Shown here: positions 10,217 to 27,587 of the stretch, piece by piece
Layout: every line of letters starts with the position of its first letter
Numbering within the stretch: the stretch's first letter is position 1
From: an uncultured bacterium
GTDB lineage: Bacteria > Margulisbacteria > WOR-1 > CAVSGV01
Assembly: GCA_963699255.1 (NCBI GenBank)
Contig: OY969425.1
Location: forward strand, 270,001-302,000
Reading direction: 5' to 3'
Length of the DNA: 32,000 bases
Position numbers and translations under genes: made by a program
The notes under the pieces: model-generated
What the model saw: the letters and a program-made list of their open reading frames with translations, nothing else
Told to the model about the DNA's origin: nothing
Database searches by the model: none

Positions 10217-11989
10217 TTACGGCGTAACGCCGGCGAAACTCTTGTAATCCTCCATCTCTTTTTCAAACATTCCTGAACGATAGAGCATTTCTATCAGATC
10301 CCCCATAGTGGCTGTCTCTTCAGGCGATCTGCCTGCCAGATATTCCAGAAGGCTGGCCTCATCCACATTTGTCGCTTTCGAAACATATCGCGCGGATTCC
10401 GCCCTTGTGACAGACCGGTCAGGCTTAAAAGTGCCGTCTTCATAATCTGTCATGATGCCGGCAGATTTTACCGCATTTATGAAGCTCGCCGCCCAGTGCA
10501 TGCGGTTTACGTCTTTGGAGACCGTTTTCTGCGTCAGGCTTAGATCAAGTTTTTTGGCTTTTGACATTATCAGTGCCATCAGCCCCCTTGAGAGCGGCTT
10601 GTTCAGTTTGTAATCCTTTCCAAGATAGCCGTAAAGTTCCGTATAGATGACCATGTATGCGAAACTCTTATTTTTTACTTCGTTTATGCTCAGGTCGACG
10701 GGGACATAGAATCTTACTATCCTCCTTGGTATCTCGGCTTCCGAACTGTCCGTATCCCTTAATTTTATTTGTATCTCATTCTTACCTATATTAAGAGGGA
10801 CAGATGCTTCAAATGCTCCGCTGCCTGATACGGCCAGTTTATTGCCGTATATCCAGACATCTGTCACATCAGGATCCACAGTGCCGCTGAAAACCTGTTC
10901 GGTGTCCAGAGTGTACAGGTTGCCGGAAGGAATGAGTGATATCTTCTGCATGACCGTCTTGATCGCGGCGACCTTTTCTGGCGCTGCGGCCGGGGCCGGG
11001 GCTTCTTTTGCAGGCGCGGCTGCCGGCGCAAAAACGGGCGCGCTGTAGAAAGTAAGGGAAACAATATTGGAAGCGATGTTCGTCTGGGCGTAATTCTGCA
11101 GGTATGCAAGATCGATCTTTACCCCTGAATAATCAAAGCCAAGACCAAAAGTAGTGTTGTTCGTCAGTTGCCCGCCGATCGCGGAGCTCGCCTCTTGATT
11201 ATAGCCGGCCCTGAGACTCAAATTCGGATGGACCTTCCATTCCGCGCCAAAGTGCATGGGCCAGGGAACATTGTCTCCGCCAAGGAACATATCCTCATCA
11301 AGCGCGAATTTTGCATTATACTCCAGCCACTGGAACGCCATCCCTATTTTCGTGATGAACGGCATGTCCTCCGTTTCAAAATCCCCGTAGATCTTTGACC
11401 CGCCGATAACGTTTTGGAGGTTCAATCCGTAGGATATCCACTTTTCCGGGGTGTATTTTAATCCAAGGTCAATGTTATAACCCGAGCCGGACCCGTTGAC
11501 GTCGCCGGTGTATCCTTTAGAGTAATATTTTAATGTCGCGCCGCCGTACATGTTCGGCTCATTTCCTGTGGATGGCCCGATCGATCCAAGCTCTTTTCCG
11601 TAGGACAGGACCAGGGCCTGGTTATAGAAATTTGTTGTGCCTGTAGTGCCTCCACCTGAAACATCAATGCCGTTTATTTTTGACGCGACATATCCTATCC
11701 CGAAAACACCCGATGTGGTAGGGATGACGCCGCAAAACATCGTATATTGATATTCATTCAGGAAATTTGAGCTCATCGTGGATATCTGCCAGCTTTTCTG
11801 GCTTCCGAGACCTGCGGGATTCATGAACATGGCGTTCACGTCATCCGCGACCGCAACAAATGCTTTGCCCATGCCCAGCGGGCGGGCCCCGATTCCGACG
11901 GCAATGGGATCGTCATAATAAACGATGCACCAGCAGTTTGCGGAGTACAGGATTAAAAAAGTAGATACCGCTACAAGGAGTTTTTTCAC
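10217..11989 (-). CDS. PorV/PorQ (FadL-like) family outer-membrane beta-barrel protein fused to a C-terminal SLH domain
   Basis: 590 aa with a signal peptide (MKKLLVAVSTFLILYSA). The N-terminal block GIGARPLGMGKAFVAVADDVNAMFMNPAGLG is the signature opening of PorV/PorQ/FadL-type barrels. Aromatic-rich alternating beta-strand sequence runs to about aa 315. An Ala/Pro linker follows (APVFAPAAAPAKEAPAPAAAPEK), then an Ig-like region of about 100 aa, then one SLH domain. Confidence 0.7.
   Translation of the reverse strand: MKKLLVAVSTFLILYSANCWCIVYYDDPIAVGIGARPLGMGKAFVAVADDVNAMFMNPAGLGSQKSWQISTMSSNFLNEYQYTMFCGVIPTTSGVFGIGYVASKINGIDVSGGGTTGTTNFYNQALVLSYGKELGSIGPSTGNEPNMYGGATLKYYSKGYTGDVNGSGSGYNIDLGLKYTPEKWISYGLNLQNVIGGSKIYGDFETEDMPFITKIGMAFQWLEYNAKFALDEDMFLGGDNVPWPMHFGAEWKVHPNLSLRAGYNQEASSAIGGQLTNNTTFGLGFDYSGVKIDLAYLQNYAQTNIASNIVSLTFYSAPVFAPAAAPAKEAPAPAAAPEKVAAIKTVMQKISLIPSGNLYTLDTEQVFSGTVDPDVTDVWIYGNKLAVSGSGAFEASVPLNIGKNEIQIKLRDTDSSEAEIPRRIVRFYVPVDLSINEVKNKSFAYMVIYTELYGYLGKDYKLNKPLSRGLMALIMSKAKKLDLSLTQKTVSKDVNRMHWAASFINAVKSAGIMTDYEDGTFKPDRSVTRAESARYVSKATNVDEASLLEYLAGRSPEETATMGDLIEMLYRSGMFEKEMEDYKSFAGVTP
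10370..10520 (-). other. S-layer homology (SLH) domain within the OM barrel protein
   Basis: KDVNRMHWAASFINAVKSAGIMTDYEDGTFKPDRSVTRAESARYVSKA matches the SLH consensus (DV...HWA...I....G...GY.DG.F.P....TRAE.A). There is a single copy, located at the C-terminus. Confidence 0.75.
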
Positions 11990-11993
11990 GGTG

Positions 11994-12863
11994 TTATTGG
12001 CGGAAGACCGCGACCTTTACTCGGCCAAGCTCTCTGGTGCTGCCGCCAGCATTTGAAACGATGCTGAGGACATAAACGCCTGTAGGCACCTGTTCATTGA
12101 AATAGGTCAGCGCATTCCAGGGGACGGCGTTATCTCCGGCAGAACCGCCGTTCTCTCCCGCGGGGATCGTTTTTTGCCAGATAAGCGCGCCTTTCTGGTT
12201 GAACAGATACAGCGATATTGTCGCCGCGGTATTGAGCTTATATTTTATCATTGTCGGACCCGTGGAAGGATTGAACGGATTTGGATCGTTGGACGGAGTA
12301 CCTATTATATCCACCTGACCCGGAGATTGAACGGTGAATCCGCCGGCCAGAACGCCGATCTTGCCGTAGCCCACGTTCGTGACCAGAACGTTCCTTGGTC
12401 CGACAGCGGCATTGTTCAGGTCAAAAGTGCACTCCATGCTCGTTGAACTTTCGATCGTGACCGTTGTCCCGTTAATGGTCGGCTGGCTCGGGCCGGTCAA
12501 GCTCGCTGTAGCGTCAGTGGAGATCAAGTAGCCGTTGATCACGACCCTGTATGACGCGTTGTTGTAACCTGCGTGCGGATCGATCTTTTTTACTACGGGA
12601 GTTTCTGCCGTGCTGAATGCGCCGGTCCCGTATACCACTCCAATGAACCTGCCTTCAAGCGTAAAACCTGGGCTCGTGGTGATCTGAGGAACGTTATCCC
12701 GCAGCTTGCCGATGAGCCTGTAACCGGATGATTCTATGGATGCGCCCCCAAGGTCCATGACTTCGGCGGATATCGCGTAGTTCGCGCTGGTGGCGGCTTG
12801 AGCGCCGCAACACCAGAAAAACATCAATAAGATCAATACAGACTTTTTTATTTTTGTCATCAA
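11994..12863 (-). CDS. Secreted protein with IPT/Ig-like middle domain and T9SS-type (FlgD-Ig/Por_Secre_tail-like) C-terminal domain
   Basis: 289 aa with a signal peptide (cleavage around AQA-AT). An N-terminal SANYAISAEVMDLGGASIESSGYRL motif is present. The C-terminus begins PNPFNPSTGPTMIKYKL...ISLYLFNQKGALIWQ...PTGVYVLSIV...KVAVFRQ, the characteristic layout of T9SS type-A sorting / FlgD-Ig-like domains. Its stop lies 4 nt from the start of the barrel gene. Confidence 0.6.
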   Translation of the reverse strand: MMTKIKKSVLILLMFFWCCGAQAATSANYAISAEVMDLGGASIESSGYRLIGKLRDNVPQITTSPGFTLEGRFIGVVYGTGAFSTAETPVVKKIDPHAGYNNASYRVVINGYLISTDATASLTGPSQPTINGTTVTIESSTSMECTFDLNNAAVGPRNVLVTNVGYGKIGVLAGGFTVQSPGQVDIIGTPSNDPNPFNPSTGPTMIKYKLNTAATISLYLFNQKGALIWQKTIPAGENGGSAGDNAVPWNALTYFNEQVPTGVYVLSIVSNAGGSTRELGRVKVAVFRQ

Positions 12864-12886
12864 TATTGTTTTTTCATGATATGAAT

Positions 12887-14197
12887 TTATTTGTAAGCAC
12901 GAATAATTATCACTCCGTTCGCGCCGGCTCCGCCAGTTGCGGTATAGGTAGTGGTATTGGATCTTTGCGCGGAACCTCCCGCTCCGCCGCCTCCGTATAA
13001 CGAACCGGCTGTTCCTGTAGTGGCAGTATTGGTAGTAGCTATAAATACACTAGGGCTATGTGTGCTGAATAAGGAATTGCCGCCTGCGCCTGAAATACCG
13101 GAAGTAGATGACAGACGGTATCCCGCTCCGCCGGCGCCGCCCGGAATATTTATATCGCCAGTTGCTCCCGCTGTACCTCCTGCGCCGCCTGCGGCAGTTA
13201 AGGTAGTAGTTCCAGAGGCCATATTTGTACCTCCGCTGCCTCCATTTGCGGTAATAGCGGAAGCATTGAATTGAGTCGGGTTTCCTGCAGTGCCTACGGC
13301 AGTGCTGCCTCCTGCGCCGCCAGTTCCTACTGAGAAAGTATATGTAGTGCCCGGGCTGGTCGCGATACGCTTTATTGTGCATGCTCCGCCGCCTCCGCCT
13401 CCACCCACAGCTCCAGAGGGATTGGCACCAGTAGTACCGCCGGAACCGCCGCCGCCACCACCGATCAAAATAACTTCAATATCAGTTACGCCGGCGGGAA
13501 CAGTAAACGGGCTTGTGCTTGCCGTTGTTAATACTGCGATTCCGGAGAGAACCCCGAGATTTGTTAGGTTCGCTCCGCTGCCGGCAAAAGCAGTTGCGGT
13601 CACGGTTCCTATAAAATTCGCGTCGCCGCTTACGCCAAGAGTCGTGCTGAATGTACTGTATGTTCCGATAGATAATTTATTTTTAAAGGCGCAATAGGAA
13701 TCGCCAACGGAGAGGGAAGGATTGTCCGGATCCGCGGTTGCTCCGGAACCTCCGCCGATGTGAAATGAGGGGTCGCCTGTGCGCGCGCTCGCCGCCCTTG
13801 CTTCAAGTCTGATATTCCGCTGGCCTGATGTCACATCGGCGGTCTTGAAAATAAAATCGATCAGGGTGGTGGTAGGATCTGTCGATTCGTATATCGCGCC
13901 GTTTTCACCGTTCCTGTTGCGCAGGCGCAAGATGGATGAACCGTAGACGTCGCCGTCCTGACGCATGACCAATTCTTTGGAAGCGACAATAGTCCCGCCT
14001 TCCGTTGTGCCGACCCCGATATTTCCGTATACATCCAGCATCTGCACGGGATTTGTTTTTCCGATCGCCACCTGGGTGGTTACATCAACTGTGCCTATCA
14101 CGGTCAAGAACCCCTCGACCGACACATCTTTTGTTACGGCAAAAGCCGGAACAGAAACGATGCATATTATTAATATAAAAAATAGTATATTTTTCAT
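12887..14197 (-). CDS. Secreted glycine-rich repeat protein (paralogue 1), tail-fibre-like N-terminus
   Basis: 436 aa with signal peptide MKNILFFILIICIVSVPAFA. An N-terminal IGKTNPVQMLDVYGNIGVG motif is shared with the giant proteins. The FTVPAGVTDIEVILIGGGGGGSGG entry motif is followed by about 200 aa of Gly/Ala/Thr/Ser-rich sequence ending GVIIIRAYK. Confidence 0.6.
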   Translation of the reverse strand: MKNILFFILIICIVSVPAFAVTKDVSVEGFLTVIGTVDVTTQVAIGKTNPVQMLDVYGNIGVGTTEGGTIVASKELVMRQDGDVYGSSILRLRNRNGENGAIYESTDPTTTLIDFIFKTADVTSGQRNIRLEARAASARTGDPSFHIGGGSGATADPDNPSLSVGDSYCAFKNKLSIGTYSTFSTTLGVSGDANFIGTVTATAFAGSGANLTNLGVLSGIAVLTTASTSPFTVPAGVTDIEVILIGGGGGGSGGTTGANPSGAVGGGGGGGACTIKRIATSPGTTYTFSVGTGGAGGSTAVGTAGNPTQFNASAITANGGSGGTNMASGTTTLTAAGGAGGTAGATGDINIPGGAGGAGYRLSSTSGISGAGGNSLFSTHSPSVFIATTNTATTGTAGSLYGGGGAGGSAQRSNTTTYTATGGAGANGVIIIRAYK

Positions 14198-14221
14198 TCT
14201 GACAAAATTCTTACCGCGAAA

Positions 14222-15181
14222 TTAGTAATATACGATAACGAGTCCCGCAGCTCCGGCCCCGCCTGCTCCGCCATTCTCCTGGCCGCCGCCGCCACCGCCG
14301 CCGGGAGGAGTTCCTGCTCTTCCGGCAACGCCCCCTCCAGCGGCATTAGCGCCGGGGCCGCCAGCTCCGCCTGAACCGCCCATCGGGCTTCCGCCTCCTG
14401 TGCCGCCGCTGGCTCCATCAGCTGCTTGAGAATTTCCGCCTGTTCCGCCTGTGAGATTAATTGTCCCGCCTGATCCTGCGCCTCCTGCCCCGCCTGTAGT
14501 TGTGGCTCCTGTTGAACCGCCGGCACCCGTAAAAGTGGTTCCGCCGGCAAAACTGCTGTTGTTGCCGTTTGCTCCGGCGCCTCCGCCGGTTCCAACTGTT
14601 ACGGTCACACTAGCACCGCTTACACTTACAAGACCCGCGCTATAACCTCCGCCTCCGCCTCCGCCTCCGGATGTATTATTGCCTGCCGTTACTCCTCCTC
14701 CTCCTCCTCCCCAAACCTGAACGTAAACTTTACTTACTCCCGCAGGTCTTGTCCATGTTCCGCTGGATGTAAACACTTGTATGTTTTGCGGGACTCCTGT
14801 TCCAGGTACCCAGGCTCTGGTTTCTGACGCTGGGAGGGAAGACGCTTCAAAAGTCACTTTTTTAGTGTTGTCAGCGCCATTCTGGATATATGTGGAAGTA
14901 TCGGTCATGGTCTTATTTGTCAGGGTCTGTGTTTCCGCGGTCATTGCGAAGGTATCATTGGCGCCGGGATCCGATATGGTAAGCGTTCTTGCGGCAGCAG
15001 GGTTGTTCCAAAGAAGCGTGTAATTAGCCGTTGTCTGTTTGAACAGGATATTTGTGTTAAGGTCCAGCTGGCCTTCAATTGTGATATTGCCTGTTACGGC
15101 AAAAGCGCCGCATGAAAAAAATAATACAAGAAAAAAACAGGCAAAATTTCTTTTCATGAATATTCGCTCATAATAATTCAT
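14222..15181 (-). CDS. Secreted glycine-rich repeat protein (paralogue 2)
   Basis: 319 aa. The likely true start is the ATG at 15157 (MKRNFACFFLVLFFSCGAFA signal peptide). It contains the QTLTNKTMTD motif shared with the giant proteins. WTRPAGVSKVYVQVWGGGGGG then leads into a Gly-rich C-terminal half ending GLVIVYY. Confidence 0.6.
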   Translation of the reverse strand: MNYYERIFMKRNFACFFLVLFFSCGAFAVTGNITIEGQLDLNTNILFKQTTANYTLLWNNPAAARTLTISDPGANDTFAMTAETQTLTNKTMTDTSTYIQNGADNTKKVTFEASSLPASETRAWVPGTGVPQNIQVFTSSGTWTRPAGVSKVYVQVWGGGGGGVTAGNNTSGGGGGGGGYSAGLVSVSGASVTVTVGTGGGAGANGNNSSFAGGTTFTGAGGSTGATTTGGAGGAGSGGTINLTGGTGGNSQAADGASGGTGGGSPMGGSGGAGGPGANAAGGGVAGRAGTPPGGGGGGGQENGGAGGAGAAGLVIVYY

Positions 15182-18100
15182 TAATACTTATATATCAGCA
15201 CAGAAACGCTGTTGCCTGATCCTGCCGCGCTTGTTACTGCTATTCCTATCATCTTGCCTGTTTGGAGATTGGAATAACCGTTCACACTGCCGGCAGCCGT
15301 AGATGTGCATATCGCGTCGCCGATGTTTATCGCCTGATTGGCAACTGCGTTCGTTATCCTTCCCGAAACGGCTACATATGCCGTGGTTCCTTCAACGGCC
15401 TGAACGAAACCAACAACATTTGGATCTTTTGCAGTGGTAGATGTTTTTACCGTATTGGCACTTGTCGTATCAAGGACAACAACATTACCCGCCACGACAG
15501 TGCCTGAAAAAGCAAAAGGCACAACAATAAGTCCTGATCCGGAGGTTGAAGTATTTAATCTGGCCGTGTTAGCCGTAACGGTATCTATAGTGACCAGGGC
15601 GGTTGTGCTTATGTCGGAACCGGTTATCGTTCCATTAAGGATCGCATCCGATGTGACCGAGCCTGTTGCCATCTTTGCCGCCGTTATCGTGTTAGACGCA
15701 ATTGCGTCAGAAGTTACTGAACCAGTTGCCATCTTCGCAGCTGTGATGGTGTTAGCCGCGATCGCATCTGAAGTGACTGAACTTGTAGCTATCTTGGCTG
15801 CTGTGATGGTGTTAGCAGCAATAGCATCAGAAGTGATTGAACTGGTTGCCATGTTGGCGGCAGTGATGGTGTTATTACCGAGTTTAGCCCCTGTTATCGC
15901 ATTAGCAGCGATCGCGTCTGAAGTGATTGAACTGGTTGCCATATTAGCGGCAGTGATAGTATTGTTCCCGAGCTTAGCGCCTGTTATCGCGTTAGCGGCA
16001 ATAGCATCTGAAGTGATTGAACCGGTTGCCATATTAACAGCGGTGATAGTGTTGCCTGCGATCTTGGCATTGGTTACCGAACCGCTGGTCAAGTCACCTG
16101 CAACAATGCTGTTGGAGAGGTTCAATTTAGAGTAGGCGATAGCAGCGGATCCGTTAATGTCGACATTGAGTATTGTGCCATCAAGGATGGCGTCTGAAGT
16201 GATAGACCCTGTTGCCATATTGGCAGCAGTGATGGTGTTGTTACCGAGCTTAGCGCCTGTAATCGCGTTAGCCGCGATCGCATCTGAAGTGATTGAACCG
16301 GTAGCCATGTTTGCAGCGGTGATAGTGTTGTTGCCGATTTTTGTGCCTGTTACCGAGCCGCTGGTCAGATCACCGGCGACGATACTATTGGAGAGGTTCA
16401 ATTTAGAGTAGGCGATAGCAGCGGATCCGTTAATGTCGACATTGAGTATTGTGCCATCAAGGATGGCGTCTGAAGTGATAGACCCTGTTGCCATATTGGC
16501 AGCAGTGATGGTGTTGTTACCGAGCTTAGCGCCTGTAATCGCGTTAGCCGCGATCGCATCTGAAGTGATTGAACCGGTAGCCATGTTTGCAGCGGTGATA
16601 GTGTTGTTGCCGATCTTTGTGCCTGTTACCGAGCCACTTGTCAGATCACCGGCGACGATGCTGTTCGATAGGTTCAACTTCGAGTAGGCGATAGCCGCAG
16701 ATCCGTTTATATCCGCATTGAGTATCGTTCCGTCAAGGATCGCATCTGAAGTTACAGAACCTGTTGCCAGCTTTGATGCGGTTATGGCTCCGTCGCTTAC
16801 AGTTGCGGCTGTCGAAGCATTTCCAGCCAAGGTTGCATAGTTTGCTGAGACTGCAGAAGTTGCTGAGCCTGCCAAAGCTGCATAATTGGCTGAAGTGGCA
16901 GTGCCTGCCAAAGTAGCTGAGCCGGCCAAAGTAGCATAGTTAGCATTTGTAGCGAGATCGGCGTAGGCAGCAGTCGATGCATTTCCAGCCAAGGTTGCAT
17001 AGTTAGCTGAGACTGCGGACGTTGCTGAGCCAGCCAAAGTTGCATAATTAGCAGAAGTAGCAGCGCCTGCGGAGGTTGCAGTACCTGCTAGGGCTGCGTA
17101 GTTAGCAGAAGTAGCAGTGCCTGCCAAAGTAGCTGAGCCGGCCAAAGCAGCATAGTTAGCATTTGTAGCGAGATCTGCAGAAGCAGCAGTAGAAGCATTT
17201 CCTGCCAAAGTTGCATAATTGGCGGAAGTTGCAGTCCCTGCAGAAGTAGCAGAGCCAGCTAAGGTTGAGTAGTTTGCAGATGAAGCAGTGACTGCCGAGG
17301 TTGCAGTTCCGGCTAAAGTTGCATAGTTAGCAGAAGTTGCATTTCCTATTACCGTTCCACTAAGAGTCCCGCTGAAGGTCTCTGCGGTTACTATTCCTGT
17401 TACAGCGAGATTGCCTGTTGCCCTGTCAAAAGAATAGGTTTTTGTGCCGCCGTTGTTATTCAGATAAAAATCTTTATCATCTACCCTGAAGATATATTGC
17501 TGGACACCCGCAATAGTATCGAACAATCCAATGCGCATAGGTTTGATGCGTGCGTAACCATAATTATTCCCATCAAAAACGCCTTGAGTATTGGCCCCAA
17601 CTACAACAATACCTTCCGATGTCGCATTTTCGGGATCGCCGTCAGCCGTAAAAGCACCTAATTTTATCACACTGCTATTTTCATAGTTCCATATCATTGT
17701 TCTTCCATATGGGTCGATATTGCCTAATATTATTTTTGCTTTTATTCGATCCGTTTCAGCTGAGATATAGCCTGTTGTGTTGATATTGATGGCCGATGCC
17801 AGATCAACTCCTAATATAGTTCCATCAAGGATCGCATCAGAAGTTACAGAGCCGGTTGCCATTTTTGACGCGGTTATTGCTCCGTCACTTACCGTAGCAG
17901 CGGTAGAAGCATTTCCTGCCAAGGTTGCATAGTTAGCTGATGTGGCAGTGCCTGCGGAAGTTGCAGTAGCTGCCAATGAAGCATAGTTAGCAGAAACAGC
18001 GCTGGTGGCAGTACCAGCTAAAGTTGCATAATTAGCAGAGATAGCAGTTCCTGCTGAAGTTGCAGTACCGGCCAGAGTTGCGTAATTTGCGGAGGCTGCA

Positions 18101-19689
18101 GAGGTTGATGTGCCTGCTAATATCGCATAATTAGCATTTGTAGCGAGGTCAGCTGAGGCAGCAGTGGATGCATTTCCTGCCAAAGCTGCATAGTTAGCTG
18201 AAGTAGCAGTGCCTGCGGAGGTTGCAGTACCCGCTAGAGCCGCATAGTTAGCAGAAGTAGCGGTTCCTGCCGAAGTTGCAGTGCCAGATAAGATCGCATA
18301 ATTTGCATTAGTAGCAAGATCAGCCGACACTGCGGTCGATGCAGTTCCTGACAGGTTTGCGTAATTTGCGGAAGCAGCTGAAGTTGAGATCCCGGCTAAT
18401 GTTGCGAAGTTAGCTGATGTGGCAGTTCCTGCAGAAGTTGCTGTACCGGCCAGAGTTGCGTAATTTGCGGAGGCTGCAGAGGTTGATGTGCCTGCTAATA
18501 TCGCATAGTTAGCATTCGTAGCGAGGTCAGCTGAGGCAGCGGTAGAAGCATTTCCAGCCAAGGTTGCATAATTGGCAGAAGAAGCAGTGCCTGCGGAGGT
18601 TGCAGTACCCGCTAGAGCCGCATAGTTAGCAGAAGTAGCGGTTCCTGCCGAAGTAGCAGTGCCAGATAAGATCGCATAATTTGCATTAGTAGCAAGATCA
18701 GCCGACACTGCGGTCGATGCAGTTCCTGACAGGTTTGCGTAATTTGCGGAAGCAGCTGAAGTTGATATCCCGGCTAATGTTGCGAAATTAGCTGATGTGG
18801 CAGTTCCTGCAGAAGTTGCTGTACCTGCTAGAGCTGCATAATTAGCGGAAGAAGCATTGGTAGCATTTGTTGCGTTGGTAGCGTTATTTGCATTGTTAGC
18901 CCAATCAACTTTTGGAGAGCCAGAAGATCCACCACCGGAGCCAGCCCAGTTAGTGGCATTAGTCGCATTGGTGGCGTTGGTAGCTGAAGCAGCAAGTATC
19001 GCGTAATCAGCAGTAGAAGCACTGGAAGCAGTTCCTGCAGAAGTTGCTGTACCTGCCAGAGTTGCATAATTAGCAGAAGTAGCAGTTCCTGCGGAAGTTG
19101 TAGTGCCGGCCAAAATTGCATAGCTGGCATTTATAGCAAGATCGGCGGATGCAGAGGTAGAAGCATTTCCTGCCAGAGTTGCATAATTAGCAGAAGTAGC
19201 AGTTCCTGCGGAAGTTGCTGAGCCAGCCAAAGCTGCATAGTTAGCTGAAGTAGCAGTTCCTGCCGAAGTTGCAGTGCCAGATAAGATCGCATAATTTGCA
19301 TTTGTGGCAAGATCAGCCGAAGCAGCAGTGGAAGCATTTCCTGCTAGAGCTGCATAATTGGCGGATGAAGCAGTGCTTGCAGAAGTAGCTGTGCCGGCTA
19401 ATGTTGCGAAGTTAGCGCTGGTCGCTGTGATATTTGTGATCGTATTTAGTGAACCATCTATGGTCTTGTTCGTCAGCACTTGAGCATCCGATGTTCCGAC
19501 AATTCGACCAATCGTTCCATGTGAAATAACCTCAGCTGTATGAGTATTGAATGTAGAAAGATCTGTCTTTAAATCAACTGATGACGCAGTCGCGAAGTAG
19601 GAGGGGAGGCTCCCGCCTAATTTGTTCGCGTCTTCGGACGTTCCCATGACCGTTCCGTTAAATGTCCCGCTGAACGATTCGGCTGTCAC
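15181..19689 (-). CDS. Giant repeat fibre protein B, C-terminal portion (no own signal peptide; reading frame is open and homologous up to 19815)
   Basis: 1502 aa.
- The N-terminal about 90 aa align with aa about 610-700 of the 2022-aa protein ([20 protein letters not shown]...[21 protein letters not shown]).
- Next come long Ala/Ser/Thr 'SANYAxLAG' 18/21-residue repeats.
- A unique globular insert of about 150 aa follows.
- Decapeptide 'xITxxx[ILM]xx[GN]' repeats come next.
- The last about 120 aa form a C-terminal domain shared with the 2022-aa protein.
Only a GTG is available as a start, and the upstream in-frame sequence is homologous to the paralogue. Confidence 0.7.
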   Translation of the reverse strand: MTAESFSGTFNGTVMGTSEDANKLGGSLPSYFATASSVDLKTDLSTFNTHTAEVISHGTIGRIVGTSDAQVLTNKTIDGSLNTITNITATSANFATLAGTATSASTASSANYAALAGNASTAASADLATNANYAILSGTATSAGTATSANYAALAGSATSAGTATSANYATLAGNASTSASADLAINASYAILAGTTTSAGTATSANYATLAGTATSAGTASSASTADYAILAASATNATNATNATNWAGSGGGSSGSPKVDWANNANNATNATNATNASSANYAALAGTATSAGTATSANFATLAGISTSAASANYANLSGTASTAVSADLATNANYAILSGTATSAGTATSANYAALAGTATSAGTASSANYATLAGNASTAASADLATNANYAILAGTSTSAASANYATLAGTATSAGTATSANFATLAGISTSAASANYANLSGTASTAVSADLATNANYAILSGTATSAGTATSANYAALAGTATSAGTATSANYAALAGNASTAASADLATNANYAILAGTSTSAASANYATLAGTATSAGTAISANYATLAGTATSAVSANYASLAATATSAGTATSANYATLAGNASTAATVSDGAITASKMATGSVTSDAILDGTILGVDLASAININTTGYISAETDRIKAKIILGNIDPYGRTMIWNYENSSVIKLGAFTADGDPENATSEGIVVVGANTQGVFDGNNYGYARIKPMRIGLFDTIAGVQQYIFRVDDKDFYLNNNGGTKTYSFDRATGNLAVTGIVTAETFSGTLSGTVIGNATSANYATLAGTATSAVTASSANYSTLAGSATSAGTATSANYATLAGNASTAASADLATNANYAALAGSATLAGTATSANYAALAGTATSAGAATSANYATLAGSATSAVSANYATLAGNASTAAYADLATNANYATLAGSATLAGTATSANYAALAGSATSAVSANYATLAGNASTAATVSDGAITASKLATGSVTSDAILDGTILNADINGSAAIAYSKLNLSNSIVAGDLTSGSVTGTKIGNNTITAANMATGSITSDAIAANAITGAKLGNNTITAANMATGSITSDAILDGTILNVDINGSAAIAYSKLNLSNSIVAGDLTSGSVTGTKIGNNTITAANMATGSITSDAIAANAITGAKLGNNTITAANMATGSITSDAILDGTILNVDINGSAAIAYSKLNLSNSIVAGDLTSGSVTNAKIAGNTITAVNMATGSITSDAIAANAITGAKLGNNTITAANMATSSITSDAIAANAITGAKLGNNTITAANMATSSITSDAIAANTITAAKIATSSVTSDAIAANTITAAKMATGSVTSDAIASNTITAAKMATGSVTSDAILNGTITGSDISTTALVTIDTVTANTARLNTSTSGSGLIVVPFAFSGTVVAGNVVVLDTTSANTVKTSTTAKDPNVVGFVQAVEGTTAYVAVSGRITNAVANQAINIGDAICTSTAAGSVNGYSNLQTGKMIGIAVTSAAGSGNSVSVLIYKY
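16114..16665 (-). repeat. 276-bp (92-aa) in-frame tandem duplication, 2 near-identical copies plus degenerate flanking copies
   Basis: 16114-16389 and 16390-16665 differ at only a handful of positions. The antisense ORFs at 16157-16411 and 16433-16687 have near-identical translations. The repeat encodes SAAIAYSKLNLSNSIVAGDLTSGSVTGTKIGNNTITAANMATGSITSDAIAANAITGAKLGNNTITAANMATGSITSDAILDGTILNVDING. Confidence 0.9.
18060..18816 (-). repeat. 378-bp (126-aa) in-frame tandem duplication within the SANYA stalk
   Basis: Sequence starting at 18066 (taccggccagagttgcgtaatttgcggaggctgcagagg...) recurs at 18444. Sequence at 18301 recurs at 18679. The offset is exactly 378 bp, with high identity. Confidence 0.85.
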
Positions 19690-20681
19690 AACACCAGATG
19701 TGTTGATGTTGATATTGGATGCAAGGGAACCGCCCGATATTTTATTTGTTGAGGTATCAACTTTGATCCAGTCAACACCGGATATTTGTGAATTAGATAT
19801 ACCGGAATTTTTACTTCAAGTGAACCATTACCATTCAGATCAACAGTGACATTATCGTACTTATTTGTTGCGGCTTCACCGGTCGGACCAATAAGGCCTT
19901 GAATTCCTTGAGGCCCGGCTTCACCAGTTAAGCCTATAGGACCTTGGGGACCAATAGCTCCAGTCTCACCAGTTGCACCGATAGGGCCTTGAATTCCTTG
20001 AGGCCCGGCTTCACCAGTTAATCCGATAGGACCTTGGGGACCAATAGCGCCAGTTTCACCAGTTGCACCGATAGGACCTTGAATTCCTTGAGGGCCGGCT
20101 TCACCGGTTAATCCGATAGGGCCTTGTATACCTTGAGGCCCGGCTTCACCAGTTAATCCGATAGGACCTTGTGGACCAACAGCGCCAGTCTCACCGGTTA
20201 GACCGATCGGCCCTTGCATTCCTTGAATGCCTTGGATACCTTGAGGGCCAGCTTCACCGGTTGGGCCTTGTGGGCCTGCTTCGCCCGATGCCCAGATCGG
20301 ATTTTGAGATGCGCCTTGGGTCTTTAAAAAGTATCCGCTGGTTCCTGCCGTAAGACTTGCCCAATTTGTCCCATTGAAATAAAGAATATCTCCTTGAACC
20401 TGGCCGGGAATGTTAAGACCCGCAGCCATCGATGCCGTTCCTGATAAAGGGGTGTAATTTGCCGTGATATTTGAAAGAGCAGAGCCGTTTCCAATGAAGA
20501 AGTCTGCTTCAACCGTGCCTCCGTTAGCCAGTATTCCCGACGGCGTGAATAATTGAGATTCTATCGTTGCAGCTCCCAGAACTATAAGACCACCGGGGAC
20601 CTTTAATCCCAGGGCAACAGGATACGCAGCACCTCCAAACAGGAAGATCAGAATCAGTACGGTAAGTACCATTCTTTTCAT
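19686..20681 (-). CDS. Giant repeat fibre protein B, N-terminal portion (signal peptide + collagen-like domain)
   Basis: 331 aa with signal peptide MKRMVLTVLILIFLFGGAAYP. The block [35 protein letters not shown] is homologous to the 2022-aa protein. There are 46 uninterrupted Gly-X-Y triplets, then ATNKYDNVTVDLNGNGSLEVK. The last 40 codons are out-of-frame nonsense relative to the paralogue. Confidence 0.7.
   Translation of the reverse strand: MKRMVLTVLILIFLFGGAAYPVALGLKVPGGLIVLGAATIESQLFTPSGILANGGTVEADFFIGNGSALSNITANYTPLSGTASMAAGLNIPGQVQGDILYFNGTNWASLTAGTSGYFLKTQGASQNPIWASGEAGPQGPTGEAGPQGIQGIQGMQGPIGLTGETGAVGPQGPIGLTGEAGPQGIQGPIGLTGEAGPQGIQGPIGATGETGAIGPQGPIGLTGEAGPQGIQGPIGATGETGAIGPQGPIGLTGEAGPQGIQGLIGPTGEAATNKYDNVTVDLNGNGSLEVKIPVYLIHKYPVLTGSKLIPQQIKYRAVPLHPISTSTHLVL
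19872..20287 (-). repeat. Collagen-like Gly-X-Y region (46 triplets)
   Basis: Hand count of uninterrupted [18 protein letters not shown] ... GPT GEA triplets, covering aa 133-270 of the 331-aa ORF. Confidence 0.9.
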
Positions 20682-20726
20682 TTCAGCACCTTCATTTTAT
20701 TTGTATGTTGCTTGCTTATATACATT

Positions 20727-23700
20727 TTAGAATTTATGGATCCAGATCGTGACTGTCCCTCCCGAATCATTGGTCAATGCTATGCCTATGCATGCGCCAA
20801 CCGTCAAATCGCCGGGTACGGACTGTATTTTGCCGGGCGCTAAGTCTGTTTCAACAGCATCTCCGCGGTGTATCGTACCTGTCGCTTTCGCGTTGGTCAC
20901 CCTGCCGGAGTATGCGACATATACTGTCTGGCCCGCGGCGGTTGTTGTGTTCATCGCAAAGCCCATCACGCCCTGGTCCGCTTCAACCGTTGTTTCCCTT
21001 ACCTGATTATCGGCGCTAGGATCATAGGCCACAACATCCCCGGCCGCTATGGCTGAAGCCGCTGTCATTGGAAGTGCAATGGTGCCGCTGCCGGAAGTGG
21101 AACTGTCGCTTAAATATGCATTTTTGCCGCTCGGGATAACAACATCCCCGCCGTTAAAGGATTCGGCCGTAACATATCCGCTCGTGCTGATATTGATCGC
21201 GCTAGATACGTTTGCCGCCGTTGAAGCAGTCCCTGCCAATGTAGCATAATCAGCGGAAACGGCGGTAGTAGAAGTTCCCGCCAGAGTCGCATAATTTGCT
21301 GTTGCTGCATTTGTGGCCGTGACTCCGGTCAGCTTCGATCCATCACCGTAGAATCTGCCGGTTGAGGATTCGATAGAAGCTGAACCGATCTTGACATTTC
21401 CGTTGACTGACAACTCATATCCCGCTTCGGGGGTCAAAGTTCCCAAGCCGGTGCTGCCATTCATAACAAGGAACCTTCCGGTATCAGCAGCGCTACCGCC
21501 GCTCCCCAAACTGACCTTGAAATCTCCGCCCTTTGTGCCGGGTCCGCCCGAGCCGGTCCCTGTAGTAAAGAGCATGCTTCCTCCCGCCACCCCACCTCCG
21601 AGGCCTGCAGTAAAAGAAAACCCGCCGGCGTTTATGCTGCCCGAAGAGGCCGTGAAAGAGAAAGAACCGCCGCCGCCGGACCCGCCTCCGGTGGACATTG
21701 ATATTCCTCCACCAACGCCGCTGGCCGTAGCGCCGGAAACTGTAAATGTTCCTCCGGTACCTCCGGGAGAAGTATTAGCACCGCCTGTTAGAATTACGCT
21801 GCCACCCGCGCCTGATCCTATTGGCCCGCTACCGGCGGTCAATCTAATGGCTTCTCCCGATGTGCCGTCATTGCCGCCCACGACATGCAGGACACCGGTC
21901 GGATTTGAAGTCCCGATGCCGACGTTGCCGCCAAAAGTGGCCCCTGCCGAATTAGTCAAAGTTCCCGTCATGATATCGCCGGCCTTAAGGACTGCTGTCG
22001 TGGCAACTGTTGAAGTGCCGGACAAAGTTGCATAAGCTGCGGCAGCCGCAGTCGATACCGTGCCAGCTAAATCAGCATAATTAGCTGTGTTAGAATTTCC
22101 AGAGCAAGTAGAGGATGTTCCTGATAAAGCAGCGAAATCAGCAGAGGCGGCAGAAGTTGCAGTTCCTGCCAAGGTTGCATAATTAGCAGAAGCGGCAGTA
22201 GTAGAAGTTCCTGCCAGGGTCGAATAATTTGCCGTTGCTGCATTTGTTGCCGTTATGCCGGTCAGCGCCGATCCATCGCCGTAATATTTGCCGGTTGAGG
22301 ATTCAATAGAAGCTGAACCGATCTTGACATTTCCGATGACAGAGAGCCTGATTCCGGCTTCCGGGGTCAATGTTCCTATCCCGACGTTGCCGCCCATAAA
22401 AGTAAATTTAGCATTATTTCCACCTTCGGAGAGATTCGTAAAGAACATAGATCCGGGTGTTGGAGAATTGGACAGGATGAAATTAAGATCGCCGGCATTG
22501 CCAGCACTGCCGCCTACACCCGTCGTTAATGTTATATTACCCCCTTTTTCATTTTCGCCCGCGGAGGTAGTTCCATTTTGGCCTGTTATGGTTATAGCCG
22601 CCCCCGGATTGCCGCTTGGGGCGCTTCCGCCATTTACGCTTAAAATTCCTCTAACATCCAGCTTCGCTCCCGGACTCGTGGTTCCAATGCCGACGTTGCC
22701 GCCTGAAACAATAAGTTGATTAGTACCGACTGTTAATCCGCTTGCGGGCAAGGTCAGAGTTCCGGTCATGGTGTCGCCGGCTTTTAGCACATTGTCTGAG
22801 GCCGCGCCCGAACAGGCGGACGAAGTTCCACTCAAAGTAGCAAAATCAGCAGAAGAGGCGGTAGTAGCAGTTCCTGCCAAAGACGCGTAATTTGCAGCAG
22901 CCGCAGCCGATACCGTTCCAGCTAAATCAGCATAATTAGCTGTGTTAGAATTTCCAGAGCAAGTAGAGGATGTTCCTGATAAAGCAGCGAAATCAGCAGA
23001 GGCGGCAGAAGTTGCAGTTCCTGCCAAGGTTGCATAATTAGCAGAAGCGGCAGTAGTAGAAGTTCCTGCCAGGGTCGAATAATTTGCCGTTGCTGCATTT
23101 GTTGCCGTTATGCCGGTCAGCGCCGATCCATCGCCGTAATATTTGCCGGTTGAGGATTCAATAGAAGCTGAACCGATATTGACATTTCCGTTTACTGACA
23201 ATTCGTATCCGGCTTCCGGAGTCATCGTTCCCAATCCGATGCTGCCGTTCATAACGCTGAATCTTCCGTTATCGGCGGCACTGCCACCGCTACCCAAATT
23301 GACCCTAAAATCCCCGCCCCTTGTGCCGGGCCCACCCGAGCCAATTCCTGTAGTAAATGTCATTCCCCCTCCCGTACCTCCGCCGCCGAGGCCGGCAGTA
23401 AAGGAAAATCCGCCGCCGGCACCGGCCCCTGAAGCAGCCGTGAAAGAGAAAGAACCGTTACCGCCGGATCCTGCTGCGGAGGTCATTGATATACCCCCGC
23501 CTCCGCCGCCGATTGAACCGCCGGAAACTGTTATCGCTGCTCCGCCAGCACCGGGAGAAAGAGAACCACCACCATTTATCAGGACACTACCACCCGCGCC
23601 TCCTCCTGCTGGTCCAGCACCCGCAATCAATCGAATGGATTCTCCCGATACGCCGTTGTTGTCGCCCACAACATGCAGTTTTCCTGTCGGACTCGTCGTC

Positions 23701-26700
23701 CCGATGCCGACATCGCCTCCTATGACAACAAGTTGACTGGTGCCGACCAATAAACCGCTGGCGGGCAGAGTCAAAGTTCCGGTCATGGTATCGCCGGCCT
23801 TAAGGACTGCTGTCGTGGCAACCGTTGAAGTGCCGGACAAAATTGCGTAATCTGCAAAAGCTGCAGTCGATGCCGTTCCAGCTAAATCAGCATAATTAGC
23901 TGTGTTAGAATTTCCAGAGCAAGTAGAGGATGTTCCTGATAAGATCGCGTAAGAAGCTGAGCCTGAACAGGATGACGCAGTTCCACTCAAAGTCGCATAA
24001 CCCGCATTAGTTGCTGTTCCACTTAAAGTTGCGTATACTGCGGTTGAAGATGTGCCGGATAATACGGCATAATTTGCCGTCGTTGCCGTGACCCCGGTCA
24101 GCGCAGATCCGTCGCCGTAATATTTGCCTCCGGCTTCCAGAGTGATGCTTCCAGCCACCTGAAGTTTTTGTAAAGGATTCGTTGTCCCGATGCCGACATT
24201 GCCGACCGCATTAGAGCCATTATGCGCTAAAATAACATTACCCGAAGTCCCCCCCGTAATCCCAGATACATAAACAGAACCACCATTTGGCCCGGCACCC
24301 CCAAAAAGATACAGGTTGCCTGGAGTGCCGCTGCTAGATCCCGCCTGTACAGTAAGATTTCTACCAGTGGTAGCTTCACCTTGTATGGATATGGTTCTGG
24401 CGGCTCCCGAAGATAGCAGGATATTACCGTTAACCTCAAGGCTTGCTCCCGGACTCGTTGTCCCGATGCCGACCTTGCCGCCTGAAACAACCAGTTGACT
24501 GGTGCCGACTGTTAAACCGTTTGCGGGCAAAGTCAGCGTTCCTGTCATTGTATCGCCGGCCTTAAGGACTGCTGTGGTGGCAACTGTTGAAGTGCCGGAC
24601 AAGGTTGCATAATTTGCATTGGCCGCGGTGACATTTGTAATTGTATTGAGCGAGCCGTCTATTGTCTTATTGGTCAGCACTTGAGCATCCGATGTCCCGA
24701 CTATCTGGCCGGTCGTTCCGTGCGCTATCACTTCACCTGTATGGGTATTGAAGGTGGCAAGGTCAGCCTTAGATTCAACTGATGCCGCTGTTGCAAAGTA
24801 GGAGGGGAGGTTACCGCCTAACCTGTTCGTGTCCTCGGAAGTACCCGTGAATGTCCCGCTGAACGCTGTCGCGGTTACAAGTCCTGTTGTGTTGATATTT
24901 ATATTCGTTGCAAGAGCGCTGTCCGCTATCTTATTCGTGGCCGTGTCAATTTTGCTCCAGTCAACCCCCGATATTTGCGAATTGGATATACCCAAAGCTT
25001 TTACCTCAAGTGACTGATTGCCATTCAGATCAACAGTGATATTATCGTACTTATTTGTTGCGGCTTCACCGGTTAATCCGATAGGTCCTTGAGGACCGAC
25101 AGCACCAGCTTCACCAGTCAAACCGATAGGACCTTGAGGACCGATAGCTCCAGTTTCACCAGTCAAACCGATAGGACCTTGAGGACCGATAGCTCCAGTT
25201 TCACCAGTAGGACCAACAGCGCCAGTCTCACCTGTTAAACCAATAGGACCTTGAATGCCTTGAATACCTTGTGGTCCGGCTTCACCAGTTAAGCCTATAG
25301 GACCTTGCGAACCGACAGCGCCAGTTTCGCCAGTTGCACCAGTTAGACCTTGAATTCCCTGAATACCTTGTATACCTTGAGGACCTGCTTCACCAGTTAA
25401 ACCTATAGGACCTTGCGGACCGACAGCGCCAGTTTCGCCAGTTGCACCAGTTAGACCTTGAATTCCCTGAATACCTTGTATACCTTGAGGACCTGCTTCA
25501 CCAGTTAAACCTATAGGACCTTGCGGACCGACAGCGCCAGTTTCGCCAGTTGCACCAGTTAGACCTTGAATTCCCTGAATACCTTGTATACCTTGAGGAC
25601 CTGCTTCACCAGTTAAGCCTACAGGACCTTGAGGACCGATAGCTCCGGTTTCTCCTGTTGCACCAGTCAGACCAATAGGACCTTGAATTCCTTGAATACC
25701 TTGAAGGCCTTGAATGCCTTGTAAACCTTGAGGCCCAGCTTCGCCAGTCAGACCGATCGGACCTTGAATTCCCTGTAAACCTTGAGGTCCTGCTTCGCCA
25801 GTTGGACCTTGCGGGCCTGCTTCGCCCGATGCCGGCGCCCAGATCGGATTTTGAGATGCGCCCTGGGTCTTGAGGAAAAGTCCATTAGTTCCTGCTGTAA
25901 GCCTTGTCCATCTTGATCCATTGTAATACAGAACATCACCTTGCGATGCGGCATCTGTTGTTACAACAGTTGAAGATAATCTTGTGTTGCTGATCGTCCC
26001 TGATGTGATATTCGTCGCGCTCAGGTTTGTGAGAGAGTTGCTTCCTCCGTCCAAAGTTTTGTTGGTCAATGTTTGCGCGTCCGTTGTAGTTACGACCACG
26101 TTCGTATCGATCGTTAAAGTTCCTGTCGCTGTTATCGGGCCTCCAAGCAATCCTACACTTGTGTTGACCTGGGTGACAGTGCCTCCGCCCCCTCCGCCTC
26201 CTGTTGCAGATATTTCGATCGTTTGACCGCTTTGAGAGAGAGAGACATTCGTTCCGCCTTTAAGGATTACAGTTCCAGTTAAAACAGTCGCGCCGGATGA
26301 GGATATTCCTGTAACAGAGACCGGAAATATTGAAGAGGCGAGTTTTCCAGTGCCGTCGGTAAACGGAATTATGTCGGCTCCCGACGCTTCTATCGATTTT
26401 CCAGCGACTGTTGTTGAATCGTCCGCCTGAAGCGCCCTGTACGCGTGCGCCGCGCTCGCTATCTGGACCCTTGGCGTCATTTCGCCGTCCGATCCGATCT
26501 CAACACCCAACCATCTGTTCGAGCCGTTAAAAGCATTGGACTGGAAAAAAATTGCCGCGCTGAATATGCCGTTGCTGTCCGGAGTAAGAGCTTCCGTGGA
26601 TGTGCCGTTCGTGACTGGAACGCCGCCGCTTGCCTGGCTGTATAACCTGAATGTGAAGCTTTGGGAAGTTGTTACGGGATTGCCGCTTGAATCCGTCAGC

Positions 26701-26795
26701 CGTCCCTCATAACCAATTATTTGCGGTATTGCCGCATAACACACCCCTGCGAAGAGTGATAATATGAACAGTAAAAAGATAAATTTCTTGAACAT
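20727..26795 (-). CDS. Giant secreted fibre protein A: N-terminal domain, collagen-like stalk, four tail-fibre-like units with glycine-rich inserts, conserved C-terminal domain
   Basis: 2022 aa with signal peptide [21 protein letters not shown] and a GGGAGGG Shine-Dalgarno sequence.
- 85 uninterrupted Gly-X-Y triplets span aa 324-578.
- 'LKAGD(T/I)MTGTLT ... (V/I)GIGT(T/S)(S/N)P' occurs four times.
- '(Y/F)YGDGS(A/K)LTG(V/I)TAT' occurs four times.
- SANYA-type stalk repeats and Gly-rich blocks are present (e.g. [29 protein letters not shown]).
- The C-terminal about 125 aa are homologous to the end of the 1502-aa ORF. Confidence 0.8.
22063..22322 (-). repeat. 260-bp perfect intragenic repeat, copy 1
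   Basis: Base-for-base identical to 22918-23177 (offset 855 bp) on manual alignment. It encodes the stalk segment ...[82 protein letters not shown]. Confidence 0.9.
22918..23177 (-). repeat. 260-bp perfect intragenic repeat, copy 2 (a third 65-bp copy of its core lies at 23878-23942)
   Basis: Identical to 22063-22322. The first 65 bp (ccagctaaatcagcataattagctgtgttagaatttccagagcaagtagaggatgttcctgataa) also recur at 23878-23942. Confidence 0.9.
25062..25828 (-). repeat. Collagen-like Gly-X-Y region (85 triplets) containing a 108-bp tandem repeat
   Basis: Hand count gives 85 uninterrupted triplets. 108-bp (12-triplet) units start at 25321, 25429 and 25537 and are nearly identical. They encode [36 protein letters not shown] three times. 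Confidence 0.9.
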
Positions 26796-26887
26796 ACAAT
26801 ACCCTCCCGCTTAATTTTCTAAGGGTTTCTGTTCTGTTACGATATTTACATTAATATATAGATGACATTTGGTAATAAAACAATATT

Positions 26888-26916
26888 ATTTTACCGCTTT
26901 CATTTTTACGCGTCAA
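26888..26916 (-). promoter_or_regulatory. Sigma70-type promoter for the fibre operon
   Basis: On the minus strand: TTGACG (26911-26916), a 17-nt spacer, then TAAAAT (26888-26893). It lies in an AT-rich 218-bp intergenic region, about 93 nt upstream of the ATG at 26795. Confidence 0.45.
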
Positions 26917-27013
26917 GCAGGCATTTATTAGTATTTATTGAACTTAAGAAGCGGGATATTCAATGTTTACTGGAGGGGAAATTTAAGAAAACACACTTTA
27001 CGCTAAAGAAGGA

Positions 27014-27532
27014 TTATTCCAGCTTTGCGTCTTTTACTTCAATGTCCCATGAACCCTTATCTGTGACAAGAAGGAACTGTATCTTAAAGAGTTTCTTTAT
27101 TTTCCCTTCAAGGGGAACGGATATGGTCGCATATTCATCATCTTTAAGCGTGAACGAGGTTTTTGTCACGGACGGGGTATAGTCGTCATCCTTTTCATCA
27201 TAAACCTGAACAACGGGGAAGCACCACTGCCCCTGTTTGATCAGTTTGCCCCTGATGGCGAAAGTGAAGTATTTCGGGTTGGAAACGTCTTTGTCTATTT
27301 TTTCAAAATAAACGCCGGGATCCGTCGCGTCATTCGCAAATATCCTTATGAGGTTCTCCTTGTATTCGTATTCGCAGTTGTTGAAAGCGCCTGAAGATTT
27401 TGCGGCATAGAGGATATTATCCTTTGAGGCCTGATCATCGTTCTTTGTTGCCTGATCGTCGTTCGCGGGTTGGACGAACCCGCAGGCCAGGACCACAAGC
27501 AGTAATGCTACGGAGATTTTTAATGAACGCAT
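27014..27532 (-). CDS. Lipoprotein of unknown function
   Basis: The ORF track extends to a GTG at 27577. However, the ATG at 27532 has a GAGGA Shine-Dalgarno sequence and yields MRSLKISVALLLVVLAC-G, a lipobox (VLAC). A promoter lies inside the longer version. I recognise no conserved family. Confidence 0.6.
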   Translation of the reverse strand: MRSLKISVALLLVVLACGFVQPANDDQATKNDDQASKDNILYAAKSSGAFNNCEYEYKENLIRIFANDATDPGVYFEKIDKDVSNPKYFTFAIRGKLIKQGQWCFPVVQVYDEKDDDYTPSVTKTSFTLKDDEYATISVPLEGKIKKLFKIQFLLVTDKGSWDIEVKDAKLE

Positions 27533-27558
27533 ATATTCCTCTGTGTATTTATCGTAAC

Positions 27559-27587
27559 ATTTTACCGGAAAATTCACTAAATTTCAA
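27559..27587 (-). promoter_or_regulatory. Sigma70-type promoter for the lipoprotein gene
   Basis: On the minus strand: TTGAAA (27582-27587), a 17-nt spacer, then TAAAAT (27559-27564). It lies about 27 nt upstream of the ATG at 27532. Confidence 0.45.

Follow-up and report, generated by a model that had tools for sequence, protein, structure and literature searches.

What kind of protein would carry a long, unbroken run of collagen-like triplets in an uncultured bacterium, and what might the run do there? The question was raised by fibre A, a gene for a 2,022-aa protein on a 32,000-nt stretch of DNA (assembly GCA_963699255.1, contig OY969425.1, positions 270,001 to 302,000; hereafter the window, whose coordinates are used unless the genome is named). 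An earlier note on this DNA had reported 85 Gly-X-Y triplets in the gene, built from tandem units. Comparisons of sequence and predicted structure indicated that fibre A is probably a Sec-exported, homotrimeric surface fibre of the type known in Bdellovibrio bacteriovorus as mosaic adhesive trimers (MATs), consisting of phage-tail-fibre-like modules and an inserted collagen-like spacer cassette. Fibre A and its neighbouring paralogue B, with all of their parts, lie on the minus strand.

Collagen-like array of fibre A

A regular-expression count on the translation returned one run of 85 triplets (aa 324-578; 25062-25826). The number and the start of the array therefore stood as first reported, and its end was found 2 nt short of the claimed 25828. 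The region scored 89.3 bits against the Pfam Collagen model PF01391 (cut-off 27.2), and its top sequence matches in the PDB were animal collagens. With at least six contiguous Gly-X-Y triplets and a PF01391 score above the gathering threshold, it belongs among collagen-like sequences. Chance origin is excluded, because a six-frame scan of the 1.77-Mb genome found only three Gly-X-Y runs of at least nine triplets: the 85 of fibre A, 71 in a paralogue elsewhere in the genome (C), and 46 in paralogue B. The array of B had been placed at 19872-20287; the count of 46 was correct, the array ends at 20285, and these triplets need the qualification that the gene is broken by a 1-nt deletion downstream of them.

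The composition was confirmed to be rich in Gln, with Pro in X and no GPP. Pro occupies 25 X positions (29%) and no Y position, Gln occupies 32 of the 85 Y positions, and Gln and Thr together occupy 58 of them (68%). Besides Pro, the X position holds Glu (16), Leu (16), Ile (15), Ala (12), and Ser (1), and the Y position holds, besides its 32 Gln, Thr (26), Ile (12), Ala (9), and Val (6). The commonest triplets are GIQ (15), GPQ (13), and GLT (13), followed by GEA and GPI (9 each), GET (7), GAV (5), GAT (4), GLQ and GAI (3 each), GPT (2), and GPV and GSQ (1 each). Pro, Glu, and Leu were found in X only and Gln, Thr, and Val in Y only, and these segregation rules are obeyed by all 202 triplets of the three arrays. 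Lys, Arg, Asp, His, and aromatic residues are absent. Over the whole array of fibre A, Pro accounts for 9.8% of residues, Gln plus Thr for 22.7%, and Ile, Leu, and Val for about 19%.

The array shows the positional preference of prokaryotic collagens, with Pro in X, not in Y, and Gln or Thr in Y (PMC3368898; PMC8968730). Its composition lies near the "Gram-positive bacteria" row in Table 4 of PMC3368898 and farther from the viral row, in which Lys and Arg fill 38% of Y positions, and this bears out the proposal of a hydroxyproline-independent bacterial style. Collagen-like regions of Firmicutes have about 10% Pro and about 24% Thr plus Gln (PMC8968730). No oxygenase of the prolyl 4-hydroxylase type in the 2-oxoglutarate-dependent family (PF13640) was found in the genome. 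The array departs from the bacterial norm twice, in having no basic residues and in its high aliphatic content. [quoted passage not shown] By analogy, a 255-residue triple helix is plausible for fibre A, because recombinant hydroxyproline-free bacterial collagens fold stably, with melting temperatures (Tm) of about 36-39 °C once they exceed about 150 residues (PMC7824840). The earlier note had envisaged a long rigid trimer that projects tail-fibre-like units. A trimeric, outward-pointing stalk agrees with the cell-proximal position proposed for the N-domain of MATs; rigidity was not supported, as a helix so poor in imino acids (about 10% Pro) would more likely be semi-flexible.

The array also shows signs of recent tandem duplication. 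Of the 108-bp units, the one at 25321 and the one at 25429 do not differ (100% identity), and the one at 25537 shows 95.4% identity. An exact self-match at offset 108 spans 198 bp, which defines a perfect block of 306 bp (25311-25616) with 2.83 copies of a 36-codon, 12-triplet unit, and Tandem Repeats Finder reported a period of 108 with 3.9 copies and 94% matches. The perfect block bears out the idea of recent in-frame expansion.

Domain organization of the fibre

The open reading frame (ORF) of fibre A is intact (20727-26795), and a sigma-70-like promoter match, TTGACG-17-TAAAAT (26888-26916; a match to the consensus only), lies about 93 bp upstream of its ATG. The translation begins with a Sec-type signal peptide (aa 1-21; 26733-26795), read as Lys-Lys near the N-terminus, a 14-residue hydrophobic core, and a CYA end before AIPQ. 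In 24 homologues, too, a hydrophobic leader precedes a mature start with conserved A-[VI]-P. Directly after the signal peptide lies a conserved N-terminal beta-sandwich domain, the N-domain (aa 22-128; 26412-26732), recognized from homologues and from AlphaFold2 (AF2) modeling. Linker modules connect it to a pre-collagen junction module (aa 285-323; 25827-25943) with the motif GDxLYYxGxxWxRLxxGxxGxxLxTQGxxxxPxW, which is conserved in A, B, and C and in P0196, G016, and G019. On its other side, the array is bordered by a post-collagen junction module (aa 579-625, ATNKYDN...SLEVK...ISGVDW...TNKIA; 24921-25061), conserved in C, P0196, and G016.

Beyond the cassette lies a stalk (about aa 700-1860; 21216-24698) that combines tail-fibre-like Ala/Ser/Thr repeats with four modules of the beta-helix type, which contain Gly-rich inserts. 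It was recognized from internal repeats and from an alignment to the Bdellovibrio protein Bd2133. The C-terminal tip domain (about aa 1890-2022; 20730-21128) matches Pfam PF09956, Phage_cement_2 (E = 4.6e-6; 27.4 bits, cut-off 24), and is 78% identical in the syntenic relative P0026 and 40% identical in paralogue B. An AF2 model of the tip from a five-sequence alignment was unusable (predicted local distance difference test score, pLDDT, 47), and no fold search was made from it.

The N-domain family and the relation to MAT fibres

The N-domain has no Pfam match, and yet it defines a very large family. A profile of the domain retrieved 79,126 clusters (50% identity) at E<=1e-3 from 1.84 billion representative proteins, and 36,547 clusters at E<=1e-10; the domain lies nearly always at residues ~10-130. 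Among related genomes, 35 of 41 carry it, usually in several copies each. Its closest named sequences come from metagenome-assembled genomes of Candidatus Margulisiibacteriota, and the Rho protein of the genome behind one of these sequences is 76% identical to that of the present genome. An AF2 model of the domain showed an eight-strand beta-sandwich (pLDDT 75.6; predicted template modeling score, pTM, 0.71). Foldseek comparison of this model with the PDB gave nothing at E<0.02, and only generic Ig-like sandwiches at E>=0.02. A MAFFT alignment of the N-terminal 323 aa with full-length homologues scattered the query beyond about aa 130 and was discarded.

MAT fibres were described as phage-tail-fibre-like trimers with beta-helix stalks and variable tips, either of the S74 or of non-S74 types; their N-domain was proposed to be cell-proximal and has no PDB homologue, and their trimerization was described as invariant (Caulton et al. 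2024, PMC10769870). Fibre A resembles the B. bacteriovorus MATs Bd2133 and Bd3182 in its signal peptide followed by a conserved beta-rich N-domain (about 110-130 aa in MATs, a beta-sandwich in the AF2 model here). It also resembles them in its long beta-helix stalk, and Bd2133 (8ond_A) was its only non-collagen match in the PDB (E = 4.7e-4, over 247 residues, aa 712-958). The match is weak but specific, and both proteins share G-x-VGIGT-x-x-P motifs. As in MATs, paralogues are many per genome, and their tips vary and can be exchanged. This genome has at least seven N-domain fibre genes, and the C-terminal ends found on the same N-domain in homologues include a Peptidase_S74 chaperone, a K1-lyase C-domain, Gly_rich_2, and others. 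S74 and non-S74 ends on the same N-domain thus form a mosaic as described for MATs (PMC10769870), in which fibre A, having no S74 domain, is of the non-S74 type. Unlike MATs as described, fibre A has a collagen segment and a Phage_cement_2-like tip, and its host, with a small genome, looks non-predatory and belongs to a different phylum. The word collagen does not occur in the MAT paper (PMC10769870). Within the present genome, collagen was found in only two of the N-domain fibre genes, A and C, and paralogue B has collagen without the N-domain.

A collagen cassette of variable length

The conserved junction modules that border the array recur on both sides in several homologues. The post-collagen module of fibre A is identical at 51 of 55 positions in C and at 35 of 52 in P0196, and is recognizable in G016. 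Between such flanks, the number of triplets differs widely. P0196, from another organism, has an array of only 16 triplets with a conventional composition rich in Lys and Asp, and the recognizably related cassette of G016 holds about 137, so that, from protein to protein, cassettes with conserved flanks contain 16, 46, 71, 85, or about 137 triplets. Collagen can also be missing altogether: P0009, an orthologue of the B type, contains three pre-collagen modules but no collagen, and the A-type gene beside it has a collagen run in which the contig breaks. Other N-domain proteins of the class have 12, 14, 19, 39, or 60 triplets. Of the 148 best representatives of the N-domain, just 6 contain any collagen, in runs of up to 28 triplets. 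A metagenome scan with the post-collagen module gave short motif matches only and no close relative.

The pre-collagen module is covered by the tail-fibre family phrog_5073. Its motif, QGDVLY..G....RL.AGTSGQFLKTQG...NP.W, was also found in gp31 of Pelagibacter phage HTVC028P (L062:2300-3148), a hypothetical protein adjoining the tail-fibre gene, with 64% identity over 36 aa and no collagen after the motif. On these comparisons, collagen is an optional, length-plastic cassette common to phage fibres and the kin of fibre A. The plasticity of array length seen in these sequences holds between paralogues and between species. For variation between strains, as the earlier note had supposed, bclA offers a strong precedent by analogy: a passage of PMC1479350, citing Sylvestre 2003, describes its collagen repeat as a highly polymorphic variable-number tandem repeat (VNTR) of B. 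anthracis that sets filament length.

The longest array observed belongs to a genome of the same family (G002:C8). A 2,663-aa ORF there (L043:1360-9348) has an N-domain followed immediately by 726 triplets, 590 of them uninterrupted, and is dominated by GNT (207) and GPQ (122); as a triple helix, it would measure about 0.5 micrometre.

Proposed working of the fibre

In the working that we propose, the signal peptide would be cleaved from fibre A and the beta-sandwich N-domain would be kept beside the cell envelope. The 255-residue Gly-X-Y run would wind together with those of two sister chains to form a triple helix of about 73 nm (0.286 nm per residue), and the junction modules on both sides would probably nucleate the helix and hold its register. 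The helix would distance the four beta-helix modules and the Phage_cement_2-like tip from the cell, and the tip would act as an adhesin or recognition head. Scaled roughly from Bd2133 (14.2 nm per 370 residues; PMC10769870), the beta-helix stalk would be about 55 nm long. Stability would come from Pro in X, from Gln and Thr in Y through hydration networks and possibly Thr glycosylation, and from beta-branched aliphatic residues, with no hydroxyproline. The number of triplet codons would set the length of the stalk, which would change through slippage between the long, nearly identical in-frame units or through their unequal recombination; these processes would explain the five- to eight-fold length differences of homologous cassettes.

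A more far-reaching version of this proposal is a long shot. The cassette of junction module, Gly-X-Y units, and junction module could serve as a length-tunable ruler in a diderm-specific surface-fibre system, whose fibres would be exported and anchored by adjacent PorV-family/SLH partners without a SprA-type type IX translocon. A contingency mechanism would then vary both the length of the stalk (from 16 to over 700 triplets) and the on/off state (the frameshift of paralogue B), and the aliphatic-rich triplets, free of Lys and Arg, would represent a helix stabilized without salt bridges or hydroxyproline.

Alternative explanations

Fibre A might be a tail fibre of a prophage or tailocin, remnant or active, with the collagen as the shaft of a virion fibre, although we consider this highly unlikely. 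Many PHROG tail-fibre families match the collagen and junction region (phrog_5073, for example, at E = 4e-67), but most of these matches are driven by the collagen repeat itself. A phage link is also suggested by the pre-collagen module next to the tail-fibre gene of HTVC028P, the match of the tip to a phage cement protein family, the match of the downstream Gly_rich_2 proteins to phrog_863, and the absence of the cluster between the same flanking genes in a close relative. However, no capsid, portal, terminase, tape-measure, baseplate, or integrase gene was found in the 32-kb window, which speaks against membership among virion fibres, and fibre A, like the first ORF of B, begins with a Sec signal peptide, something that a virion fibre can do without. 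The N-domain family, with its roughly 79,000 clusters, is multi-copy in cellular genomes, and a syntenic copy lies beside Rho in another organism (L058). An explanation of a different kind, that the Gly-X-Y run forms no triple helix and serves as a flexible linker of low complexity, would fit its modest Pro content (about 10% of residues), the lack of hydroxyproline, of Arg in Y, and of Lys-Glu/Asp pairs, and the fact that AF2 monomer models cannot show a triple helix. It was judged improbable, as a linker needs neither 85 consecutive glycines at every third residue nor the X/Y segregation of eight residue types, a segregation that persists across three arrays and into distant homologues. Hydroxyproline-free recombinant collagens of bacteria are moreover stable at about 36-39 °C when longer than about 150 residues (PMC7824840), and the run sits in a fibre family whose trimerization is described as invariant (PMC10769870).

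There is a small but real chance that the array exists and that its length, with 85 triplets and three near-identical units, is a product of assembly, the true copy number being different or heterogeneous; this would be compatible with a MAT-type surface fibre. The 306-bp perfect tandem repeat exceeds typical short reads, which makes the copy number hard to assemble, and contigs of related metagenome assemblies break within the orthologous fibre genes or beside them (L058, L059, and the Rho contigs). On the other side, the genome was assembled into one contig of 1.77 Mb (95% completeness, 0.1% contamination), an outcome that points to long reads or to curation, and the diverged flanking copies are in frame within an intact ORF. 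Mis-assembly would at most shift the count by multiples of 12 triplets and would leave the nature of the feature unchanged.

Along with this repeat, several points weigh against fibre A as a MAT-type surface fibre. The Bd2133 stalk match is weak (E = 4.7e-4), and the likeness to MATs was drawn from architecture and stalk, the Bdellovibrio N-domain having been compared by its description only. The stability of the helix is uncertain, as the array has no KGE or KGD pairs and is unusually aliphatic. With B frameshifted and C without a clean start or signal peptide, the fibre family may be decaying in this genome. Finally, the exact 2,022-aa protein is absent from a collection of 15 billion proteins in which neighbouring products of the genome are present; public annotation probably calls the gene differently or as a pseudogene.

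Comparison with other collagen-like fibres

BclA, the exosporium nap protein of Bacillus anthracis and B. cereus, resembles fibre A in having a collagen stalk that joins an N-terminal region for attachment to a globular tip at the C-terminus. Its stalk is hydroxyproline-independent, with Thr-rich Y positions and the in-frame VNTR that sets filament length in the passage cited above, and fibre A matched BclA (1wck_A) weakly, in the collagen part only. However, BclA is a spore protein of about 200-400 aa with a C1q/TNF-like tip, whereas in the 2,022-aa fibre A the collagen is followed by 1,440 aa of beta-helix and tail-fibre modules and no C1q-like domain is present, and its genome is of the diderm type, with SLH/PorV-like outer-membrane proteins. 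Membership in the BclA group was rejected on the different tip and on the confinement of the alignment to the collagen part. Streptococcal Scl1 and Scl2 and Legionella Lcl are likewise exported, with hydroxyproline-free collagen stalks of variable repeat number. The NCBIfam models matched the collagen region of fibre A below their cut-offs (Lcl, 170.7 against 500; SclB, 154 against 325; SclA, 126 against 400), and fibre A ends in ...WIHKF without the LPXTG anchor of the Scl proteins; membership was rejected on these grounds. Scl2 also relies on charged residues, whereas the array of fibre A has no basic residues.

The side tail fibres EPclA-D of lambdoid prophages in enterohaemorrhagic Escherichia coli (EHEC) combine a collagen shaft with trimeric phage-fibre modules, have Pro only in X, and commonly contain GPQ and GET (Ghosh et al. 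2012, PMC3368898). Unlike the array of fibre A, in which Lys and Arg are at 0%, these EPclPs have Lys or Arg at 31% of Y positions and Asp or Glu at 36% of X positions (PMC3368898). They are also virion parts that lie inside prophages and lack signal peptides.

Implications

Collagen-like stalks of bacteria are well established, with a variable repeat number that determines the length of the fibre in BclA, Scl, and Lcl. Fibre A is a further case of a common design, a surface fibre made from phage-tail-fibre parts and a collagen spacer of variable length. It extends the collagen-stalk design to an uncultured candidate phylum, probably Margulisbacteria, and places a collagen cassette with conserved junction modules inside MAT-type fibres, whose published description is without collagen. 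Current understanding is not overturned, and the practical use lies in annotating a large N-domain family that has no Pfam model. The arrays also provide natural sequences for triple-helix biophysics, with a 255-residue run free of basic residues and 590 uninterrupted triplets in a relative of the same family, and raw material for recombinant collagen work.

Paralogues and genomic setting

Paralogue B was found in two ORFs. The first (331 aa; 19686-20681) has a signal peptide and the pre-collagen module without the MAT-type N-domain, followed by the collagen-like region of 46 triplets (19872-20285; pattern count and Pfam). Comparison with A and C showed one base missing just after GTAAAA (19802-19814), beyond which the fibre continues in the -1 frame as a second ORF (1,502 aa; 15181-19689) that ends in the same tip domain. 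This 1-nt deletion, 63 nt past the array, could mark a pseudogene or a phase switch, or could be a sequencing error. Paralogue C (genome 830552-833221, minus strand; 71 triplets at genome 831284-831922) has a different, short C-terminal end. It lacks an ATG where A starts, and about 20 aa are inserted into its signal-peptide region; its best listed start is a GTG without a basic n-region, and the protein may be export-defective. The three arrays share one triplet vocabulary (EA, PQ, IQ, PI, LT, ET, and AV/AI) but are built from different units, of 12 triplets in A, of 5, 10, and 15 triplets in B, and of about 13-14 triplets in C, and each array therefore expanded independently.

The fibre cluster (10217-27577, QueF to Rho) lies in ordinary chromosome of the single 1,770,855-bp contig. 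Rho, a Mur ligase, EamA, and flagellar genes flank it on one side, and a histidine kinase, QueF, and polyamine genes on the other. Past paralogue B, there are two Gly_rich_2 proteins that match phrog_863 ("tail fiber assembly"), a 289-aa protein, and then a PorV-family barrel and SLH domain protein. The cluster is missing from relative L063, whose Rho is 96% identical, and relative L058 has a shorter one beside Rho (fibre, 872 aa, 288 aa, SLH protein, Rho); the locus between Rho and QueF is a variable island. The raised GC content of the fibre genes (0.50-0.55 against about 0.46) was not taken as a sign of horizontal transfer, since Gly/Ala-rich coding explains it. A Rho-anchored walk through the loci of relatives yielded no orthologous collagen array of measurable length, as contigs break there: that of L058 begins inside the fibre gene, that of L059 begins inside the collagen run, and in other relatives the Rho contigs stop just upstream of Rho. 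No collagen was found in the 1.2-Mb assembly of close relative G062 (Rho 96% identical), which is itself incomplete and hence not evidence of absence.

About 13 PorV-family barrel genes were counted in the genome, with no SprA above its cut-off; examples lie at genome 203334-204191, 281054-281899 (window 11054-11899), 1259674-1260531, and 818236-819081. At least three of the PorV-family genes directly adjoin N-domain fibre genes, and the copy in the window also has an SLH domain. This adjacency suggests a dedicated outer-membrane partner for the fibres.

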